A stretch of 64,000 nt of DNA from Escherichia coli (GTDB taxonomy: Bacteria > Pseudomonadota > Gammaproteobacteria > Enterobacterales > Enterobacteriaceae): NCBI RefSeq assembly GCF_041886205.1, contig NZ_CP169029.1; one strand, written 5' to 3'. A model generated the notes under the pieces. It saw nothing but the letters and a program-made list of their open reading frames with translations, searched no databases and had not been told where the DNA came from. Each line of letters starts with the position of its first letter. Position 1 is the first letter of the stretch. Position numbers and translations under genes: made by a program. Shown in pieces: positions 15,075-15,786 of this stretch.

Positions 15075-15137
15075 TGGGCGGTATTCTGAAACGGCGATTG
15101 TCGTGAGAACAGAATGGTTGCACCAGAATACAGATAT

Positions 15138-15167
15138 AAAAAAACCGACATGACAGTCGGTTTTTTT
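15138..15167. terminator. bidirectional rho-independent terminator (A7-ccgac-atgaca-gtcgg-T7)
   Basis: 5-bp GC-rich stem flanked by A-run and T-run, 64 bp downstream of selU stop. Confidence 0.6.
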
Positions 15168-15226
15168 ATTTTTTCCGCCCAAGACTTGGTGGTTCCGGGC
15201 AGAAATGAAACAGTCCTCATCTAGCA
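15138..15226 (-). ncRNA. putative antisense sRNA (candidate type I antitoxin); ends approximate
   Basis: Minus-strand TTGAAT-17bp-TATAAT promoter (15232-15260), predicted transcript contains UGCUAGAUGAGGACUG complementary to 15397-15412, ends at the bidirectional terminator. Confidence 0.35.
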
Positions 15227-15231
15227 AGTGA

Positions 15232-15260
15232 ATTATAAGTCAGGATGCCTCCATATTCAA
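15232..15260 (-). promoter_or_regulatory. candidate sigma70 promoter for the putative sRNA
   Basis: -35 ttgaat (15255-15260), 17-bp spacer, perfect -10 tataat (15232-15237) on the minus strand. Confidence 0.35.
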
Positions 15261-15376
15261 ACAGCTATGTTGGCGATACAATCCCGACGCTAGTAGTGAT
15301 ACTGCCTCAAGGGATTACCGCAGTGCGGAAAAGTACTTTTAAGTCCTGGTCAGGATACAGGTGGTGCTGATTCTGG

Positions 15377-15385
15377 TGCTCTAAT
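15377..15385 (+). promoter_or_regulatory. candidate extended -10 promoter for the small-peptide mRNA
   Basis: tgctctaat resembles TGnTATAAT; -35 is poor. Confidence 0.25.
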
Positions 15386-15485
15386 TTGGAGAGAGGCAGT
15401 CCTCATCTAGCACATGAAGAAAATCATAGTTACAGGCAACGTAAGGGTAAGCTGTGATTGTCTTTCTCCCTTAAGGGAGCAACGG

Positions 15486-15569
15486 ATGAAAACTTTTCTC
15501 GATAAAGTTCTCATCGTTCTTAAGGCGCTAATCGCGCTGCTGGAACTGATCCGTCAGTTTATTGAATAA
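15486..15569 (+). CDS. 27-aa hydrophobic peptide MKTFLDKVLIVLKALIALLELIRQFIE, DinQ/TisB-like candidate type I toxin
   Basis: ATG preceded by aagggag SD 7 nt upstream; single amphipathic helix; own hairpin terminator; in-frame upstream ATG at 15414 would give 51 aa. Confidence 0.5.
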   Translation: MKTFLDKVLIVLKALIALLELIRQFIE

Positions 15570-15587
15570 CTGAGGAAACGTAGCTAA

Positions 15588-15615
15588 GGCCGAAGGTTTA
15601 CCACCTTCGGTCTTT
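15588..15615 (+). terminator. hairpin terminator after the small ORF
   Basis: ccgaaggt-ttacc-accttcgg stem-loop followed by TCTTT. Confidence 0.5.
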
Positions 15616-15670
15616 AAAAAAACCGACATGACAGTTGGTTTCATATTTATTGCCAAAATGCACACTGTTC

Positions 15671-15771
15671 ATGCCGGATGCGGCGTAAACGCCTTATCCG
15701 GCCTACACAATCTTGCAAAATCAATATATTGCACGCTCTTCGTAGGCCTGATAAGCGTAGCGCATCAGGCA
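15671..15771. repeat. BIME (two inverted REP units)
   Basis: gccggatgcggcgtaaacgccttatccggcctac and gtaggcctgataagcg...catcaggca. Confidence 0.75.
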
Positions 15772-15786
15772 ATCTAACACCTGTCA

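Follow-up and report, generated by a model that had tools for sequence, protein, structure and literature searches.

Two lines of published work bear on the DNA described here. In Escherichia coli K-12, the DNA that separates the ybbP stop codon from that of selU is taken up by the RhsD element, a 7.3-kb stretch with a YD-repeat core protein of 1,426 aa and an immunity gene, as well as orphan tips and part of an H-rpt. The ybbA to ybbB region has been catalogued as rhs 'position 3', where the presence or absence of Rhs varies among strains (Jackson et al. 2009, PMC2935791, Table 3), and in the same study Rhs was inferred to have been gained there after the split from B2-type strains. The other line concerns dinQ-agrA/agrB, which lies between gor and arsR in K-12 (PMC3567139, PMC5066626). 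In the dinQ switch, binding of the sRNA frees an anti-SD segment, which closes the ribosome-binding site (PMC5066626). The dql genes (dqlA/dqlB), of which 14 sequences were reported from chromosomes and plasmids of the Enterobacteriaceae (Kristiansen et al. 2016, PMC5066626), are dinQ homologues located outside gor-arsR; they have a conserved 5'UTR and a sigma-70 promoter, and co-occur with dinQ in the same strain.

We analysed a stretch of 64,000 nucleotides from an E. coli chromosome (contig NZ_CP169029.1; hereafter, the window) in which the selU-ybbP interval is short. Our main reading, to which we assign a probability of about 85%, is that this hot-spot junction holds a 567-bp dql type I toxin-antitoxin (TA) module beside resident REP elements, that the module would be repressed as dinQ is by agrB, and that rhsD was never carried here. 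Both the Rhs polymorphism at this site (PMC2935791) and the DinQ-like/AgrB family (PMC5066626, NCBIfam, Rfam and PGAP) are already known, and because position 3 has been catalogued, the finding in the window is an ordinary one. Its main value lies in annotation and bookkeeping, with three additions: a probable misnaming as 'damage-inducible', decay alleles mediated by repeats, and a signature of recent spread.

The selU-ybbP junction compared with K-12

The junction and its flanking genes are as follows.

13980-15074, + strand: selU/mnmH, tRNA 2-selenouridine synthase, 364 aa, left flank (NCBIfam NF008749, 757.8 bits, full length)
15075-15786: selU-ybbP junction, stop codon to stop codon, 712 bp, without a K-12 counterpart
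15787-18201, - strand: ybbP, ABC transporter permease, 804 aa, right flank (NCBIfam NF041854, 1457.5 bits)

An identical selU locus is annotated by PGAP in strain VE-T9, and ybbA and allS lie beyond selU/ybbP in the window, in the arrangement usual for E. coli. An earlier note on this DNA had placed selU and ybbP merely 712 bp apart, which the gene ends at 15074 and 15787 confirm. It had also reported that the gap was free of Rhs core, YD-repeat and H-rpt sequence; this holds as well, since none was found in the 712 bp, either among the ORFs, the longest of which within 15075-15786 has 51 aa, or by blastn against K-12 rhsD-ylbG. The features by which an Rhs element is recognized, namely a large YD-repeat core ORF that carries a C-terminal tip, together with an immunity gene and H-rpt, are all absent from the gap.

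The same note stated that several kilobases containing rhsD separate the two genes in K-12, and the MG1655 map agrees: ybbP (520416-522830) and selU (530132-531226) have 7,301 bp between them, with rhsD, ybbC, ylbH', ybbD', ylbI' and ylbG. When window 13900-16300 was compared with this K-12 interval (blastn, word size 7), the two aligned up to 15076 and again from 15781, and no similarity to K-12 ybbP-selU was detected at 15077-15780. Reading both K-12 junctions showed that similarity is lost no more than a few bases from either stop codon. The alignment that the note had proposed as a check thus finds no such 712-bp junction in K-12; the RhsD element and the window module occupy the same interval and have no sequence in common.

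Alternative occupants of the interval in 5,426 genomes

The junction was surveyed in 5,426 complete E. coli genomes. The K-12-type ybbP-rhsD joint was present in 2,859 of them, and 574 carried a type VI secretion system (T6SS) cassette, Hcp-Tle1 with DUF2931, at the junction. A chimeric query that joined the final 400 bp of each gene, selU and ybbP, detected a gap of at most 900 bp in 1,856 genomes, which have either the dql module or REP sequence only. About 1,325 genomes, all within this short-gap class, contained the module itself, and about 1,314 of the 5,426 had at least 80% of the 712-bp junction; the rest of the class, about 500 genomes, have 'empty' alleles in which REP sequence alone, 57, 139 or 240 bp long, fills the junction. 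The E. albertii junction is likewise an empty allele, and Rhs also occupies the junction in O157:H7 and other strains, with different tips.

The selU-ybbP interval is a cargo hot spot in Escherichia, and the absence of rhsD from it is a common polymorphism. The lack of rhsD in the window is accordingly a normal allele, neither an assembly problem nor a strain-specific deletion. That a known variable junction has a different occupant in this strain, as the earlier note proposed, is borne out by these alleles and by rhs position 3 of PMC2935791.

These frequencies also bear on the possibility that the short junction is a deletion scar, that is, that an ancestral rhsD was lost and a TA module left over. 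Rhs is the majority allele in the survey, and Rhs loci have been gained and lost repeatedly (PMC2935791). However, the K-12 Rhs allele contains none of the 704 bp and the window retains no fragment of Rhs, ylbG or H-rpt, so the two alleles share nothing between the stop codons. Moreover, empty REP-only alleles exist in both E. albertii and E. coli, and the gain of Rhs has been dated after the B2-type split (PMC2935791). We consider a deletion scar very improbable, and proceed on the reading that the dql module occupies a junction that never carried rhsD.

The third alternative occupant, the orphan T6SS cassette, consists of an 'extended Hcp' effector of 666-667 aa, an Hcp with a fused Tle1-like phospholipase domain, after which come two to three DUF2931 genes (L009:9831-13833 and L014:1140-4467); the same cassette is found in E. 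whittamii. This protein toxin/immunity cassette of ~4 kb is unrelated to the RNA-regulated module of the window. Across strains, the cargo of the hot spot is either a putative membrane toxin under RNA control or a protein toxin that depends on cell contact, and the site serves as an example of cargo turnover rather than as a new question.

In Citrobacter spp. (L017-L021 and L023), the selU-ybbP interval holds an operon of ~4 kb with genes for a lipoprotein of the NlpA family, an ABC ATPase that has a NIL domain, and a permease, as well as one further ORF; this sfb-like operon resembles a methionine-type ABC transporter. As it lies at the same interval, the adjacency of selU and ybbP is conserved across genera while the content varies.

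Boundaries of the module

The module was delimited by alignment as the DNA missing from the empty alleles of E. coli DA61218, BroCaecum-55 and APEC E18006 and of E. albertii. In these alleles, ...GATTCT is joined directly to GTGCACGCTGTTCATG-REP.

15091-15657: dql/agr module, 567 bp, missing from the empty alleles
15615-15654: D1b, degenerate second copy of the sRNA terminator region (direct repeat D1)
15658-15786: pair of REP (BIME-like) elements, resident intergenic sequence common to the empty alleles

The REP pair gave sub-threshold matches to the REP-derived Rfam families naRNA4/ES036, and REP matches number in the thousands genome-wide. Direct repeat D1 (40 nt, 83% identity) has copies at 15137-15176 and 15615-15654, 478 bp apart, and D1b is probably the relic of a second agr copy. 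Neither terminal inverted repeats nor target-site duplications that would mark a transposable element were found in the module; it has only the internal direct repeats D1 and D2.

Toxin gene, antisense sRNA and family placement

The module contains the following genes and signals.

15486-15569, + strand: dql toxin ORF, 27 aa, MKTFLDKVLIVLKALIALLELIRQFIE (NCBIfam NF041472 toxin_DinQ)
15586-15614, + strand: toxin mRNA terminator hairpin, GGCCGAAGGU...ACCUUCGGUC then UUU (inverted repeat I5)
15224 to 15136, - strand: AgrB-like antisense sRNA, 89 nt, putative antitoxin; its 5' end is the antisense segment (Rfam RF02891)
15232-15260, - strand: sigma-70 promoter of the sRNA, TTGAAT-17 nt-TATAAT (scan, 10/12 matches, sole match in the region)
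15136-15169: sRNA terminator, a perfect 14-bp hairpin with A and T runs on either side (two-strand scan, inverted repeat I2)

The 27-aa peptide is hydrophobic (GRAVY 1.23) and matches the toxin_DinQ model NF041472 with 40.9 bits (curated cutoff 30; E = 1.8e-10); its score against the DqlB HMM is 24.5 bits, below the cutoff of 35. In genomes with an identical junction, PGAP annotates an 84-nt 'dinQ' CDS at the equivalent of 15486-15569, and the exact peptide is recorded in NCBI as 'MULTISPECIES DinQ' on at least 1,000 contigs. The toxin terminator appears as a stable 3' hairpin in the predicted fold, and its position and style match those of the K-12 dinQ terminator.

Public records conflict over the extent of the ORF, one giving 51 aa from the ATG at 15414 (WP_001308457.1) and another 27 aa (WP_349808740.1). 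The 51-aa version was rejected because its start has no SD and lies inside the sRNA target, whereas the 27-aa start is preceded by AAGGGAG (15473-15479), 6 nt before the ATG.

The sRNA gene lies 262 nt upstream of the toxin ORF, is transcribed divergently and does not overlap it. It matches Rfam RF02891 (AgrB) over the full model, 1-84, with 53.6 bits (gathering score 40; E = 5.4e-8), and is ~71% identical to K-12 agrA. Its promoter ends 7 nt upstream of the Rfam-defined 5' end, and the 14-bp hairpin at its 3' end may also act on the + strand as the terminator of selU. For the toxin mRNA, the promoter scan found no clear sigma-70 promoter in this region; by eye, TTGGCG-15-TAGTAG and GATACA-17-GATACT are weak -35/-10 candidates upstream of 15336.

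The toxin_DinQ and AgrB matches give a family to the small TA-like module that the earlier note had perceived and left unnamed. The sequence supports the occupant of the gap being a type I TA module of the published DinQ/AgrB (dql) family. In dinQ-agrA/agrB of K-12, too, a 27-aa single-helix hydrophobic peptide is encoded, 15 of 23 aligned residues are identical in the two peptides, including the ALIALLELIR core, and a divergent, non-overlapping upstream sRNA has a 5' end antisense to the 5'UTR of the toxin. K-12 dinQ also shares the predicted anti-SD/SD hairpin and the style of the terminator, and nucleotide identity is ~70% over the 5'UTR core and ORF. The window module differs from dinQ-agrA/agrB in its site, in having one sRNA copy and a terminator relic instead of agrA and agrB, and in a peptide that is three residues longer at the N-terminus and four shorter at the C-terminus than K-12 DinQ.

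Identity with dinQ proper, the SOS-regulated gene at gor-arsR, was rejected on the basis of both location and the LexA box. No LexA box (CTG-N10-CAG) is present in 15075-15786; the best match to the LexA consensus in the gap is 11/20 with one half-site, against 15/20 with both half-sites for K-12 dinQ. Because the LexA box of true dinQ is missing, the module is probably not SOS-induced; we do not call the gene damage-inducible, and the PGAP name 'damage-inducible DinQ' probably misleads. For the same reason the module fits the published dql class rather than dinQ itself, and the dql family of PMC5066626 is its best fit. A PGAP 'dinQ' at selU-ybbP is better taken as a paralogue without a LexA box (dql) than as the SOS gene.

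Canonical dinQ was present at gor-arsR in 5,422 of the 5,426 genomes, so that the copy in the window is an additional paralogue and carriers have both. A second dinQ-like copy in about a quarter of E. coli matters for counts of type I toxins, for DinQ phenotypes and for 'dinQ' deletions made outside K-12. Relatives of dql occur on 1,661 plasmid records, and the plasmid dql/dqlB copies align with part of the window module at no more than 67-77% identity. A near-identical plasmid donor was accordingly rejected; three matches of at least 95% are on megabase-sized records and are evidently chromosomal.

Predicted pairing of the sRNA with the toxin 5'UTR

Three further elements are relevant to the regulation proposed for the module.

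15211-15232: D2 copy 1, within the sRNA gene, encoding the antisense segment (direct repeat D2)
15389-15418, + strand: putative sRNA target in the toxin 5'UTR, comprising D2 copy 2 (15397-15418) and a purine-rich element, GGAGAGAGG
15463-15482, + strand: anti-SD/SD hairpin, CUCCC-UUAA-GGGAG (inverted repeat I10)

Direct repeat D2 (22 nt, 91% identity, 16 nt exact) has copies at 15211 and 15397, 186 bp apart. With RNAduplex, the first 36 nt of the sRNA and UTR 15360-15411 gave -46.0 kcal/mol, compared with -22.6 +/- 3.2 kcal/mol (minimum -35.2) for 500 shuffles, and 23 consecutive mRNA bases, at 15389-15411, were paired, G-U pairs included, with 16 nt exact. The 36-nt 5' segment replaced the full-length sRNA in this calculation because full-length duplex energies are inflated, the entire sRNA gene being a diverged direct repeat of UTR sequence. 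The helix of ~23 bp is shorter than the 34-bp agrB/dinQ duplex, and its energy is no better than the -44.4 kcal/mol of K-12 agrA/dinQ, a pair reported to be inactive; the helix is, however, continuous over its ~23 bp.

The window hairpin CUCCC/GGGAG aligns with CUCCAU...AUGGAG of K-12 dinQ. In the fold predicted for 15336-15616 from the single sequence (z = -4.2), the target segment GGAGAGAGGCAGUC pairs with the anti-SD GAUUGUCUUUCUCC, and the 5'UTR is thus predicted to follow the logic of the published dinQ switch. The module would then work as follows: it would encode a hydrophobic membrane peptide of 27 aa from an mRNA with a long, structured 5'UTR, and the 5' end of the divergent 89-nt AgrB-like sRNA would base-pair with ~23 nt in this UTR. 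By analogy with dinQ/agrB, pairing would free the anti-SD, so that the ribosome-binding site is closed, and would also create a substrate for RNase III; the two effects together would keep toxin synthesis off. The gene identities, the comparison with K-12, the HMM and covariance-model assignments, the sRNA promoter and terminator, the complementarity and the allele frequencies come directly from the sequences; toxicity, the RNA switch, cleavage by RNase III and the sequence of evolutionary steps are inferred.

Cross-pairing was also predicted, using window 15136-15224 and the K-12 dinQ region (L003:2206-2440). The window sRNA with a K-12-type dinQ mRNA gave -41.9 kcal/mol, compared with -46.0 for the cognate pair, and K-12 AgrA and AgrB with the window dql UTR gave -40.1 and -34.6 kcal/mol, respectively. 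As these energies are not far below the cognate value, cross-talk between dql and dinQ is possible in carrier strains.

Decay alleles

Several carriers have lost parts of the module. About 190 of the 1,325 have a deletion of 108 bp (equivalent to 15397-15504) that spans the sRNA target, the SD and the toxin's first six codons and leaves the AgrB-like sRNA gene in place. In strain PE164 (L097), 186 bp equivalent to 15211-15396 are deleted, exactly between the D2 copies, and both promoters are lost; judging from these end points, the homology that would underlie antitoxin action also mediates loss of the locus. Given the ~190 deletions, the promoter deletion and an IS insertion among carriers, the toxin is dispensable and sometimes decays.

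Such alleles could mean that the module is a non-functional relic, with an ORF and an sRNA that are homologous to the family and neither expressed nor toxic. The frequency of decay (the 108-bp deletion in ~190 genomes, the 186-bp deletion in PE164 and the IS at the sRNA promoter) would suit this explanation, as would the absence of a strong toxin promoter from the scan. Against it, the region is intact in 1,135 genomes, and identity across the ORF and target reaches at least 99% in 1,248 of the 1,325 carriers; in the window, the sRNA promoter is near-consensus, the terminator is perfect, and the SD, start codon, anti-SD and complementarity have all been preserved. We therefore regard a relic as improbable and continue to read the locus as a type I TA module that would be repressed as dinQ is.

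The toxin-less allele with the 108-bp deletion is an 'orphan antitoxin', exemplified by strain ampC_0069 (L005). In NZ_OW967178.1 (L011:7897-8943), an IS that encodes an integrase-core transposase interrupts the -35 region of the sRNA promoter at ~15260 and splits the antitoxin gene from the toxin gene. The junction of strain SCPM-O-B-8794 (L012:11096-11328), ~6% diverged from the window, consists of the left spacer and a single D1 copy, with no agr body and no dql gene; this allele could represent either a repeat-mediated deletion or a pre-insertion state.

Divergence of the module and of its flanks

Divergence was compared in ten pairs formed by the window and four carriers chosen for divergent flanks (L013, L092, L093 and L094), one of which belongs to a separate GTDB species (Escherichia sp. 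E1V33). In all ten pairs, 0.2-0.9% of the sites differ in the module (15091-15657), against 2.3-8.3% in the last 300 bp of selU and 2.7-4.3% in the first 300 bp of ybbP. The module is thus 5-20 times less divergent than its immediate flanks, and the Poisson probability of so few differences at the flank rate is 1e-5 to 1e-6.

Low divergence might reflect strong purifying selection on a dense, vertically inherited RNA/peptide element; in type I TA loci, promoters, structured UTRs, ORF and sRNA lie within a few hundred bases, and nearly every position could be constrained. However, the paralogous dinQ/agrAB locus does not exceed its flanks in conservation: in two divergent strains, the UTR core is 93-94%, agrB 89-91% and gor 96-97% identical. 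Since canonical dinQ/agrAB is less conserved than gor, a constraint common to the family does not explain the conservation of the module. The dql spacers (15075-15135 and 15225-15335) are also nearly identical, with only 0-2 differences, and the ends of the identical tracts vary from pair to pair, running into selU or into the REP/ybbP side, as expected for recombination tracts. Purifying selection is in our view an unlikely explanation, and recent spread of the module through short recombination tracts is a likelier reading than constraint, as far as can be judged by comparing sequences.

A broader reading, tentative and at slightly less than even odds, joins this signature to the alleles described above. 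The dql module would be a young cassette that recently entered very different members of Escherichia (including E1V33) by short-tract homologous recombination and competes for the site with T6SS cassettes (Rhs and Hcp-Tle1), and its own repeats would drive its decay, the promoter-less, toxin-less and solo-hairpin alleles being the decay products.

The 3' end of selU (14775-15074) is itself unusually divergent among E. coli, up to 8.3% and above allS or the bulk of ybbP, as expected beside a hot spot of recombination and cargo exchange.
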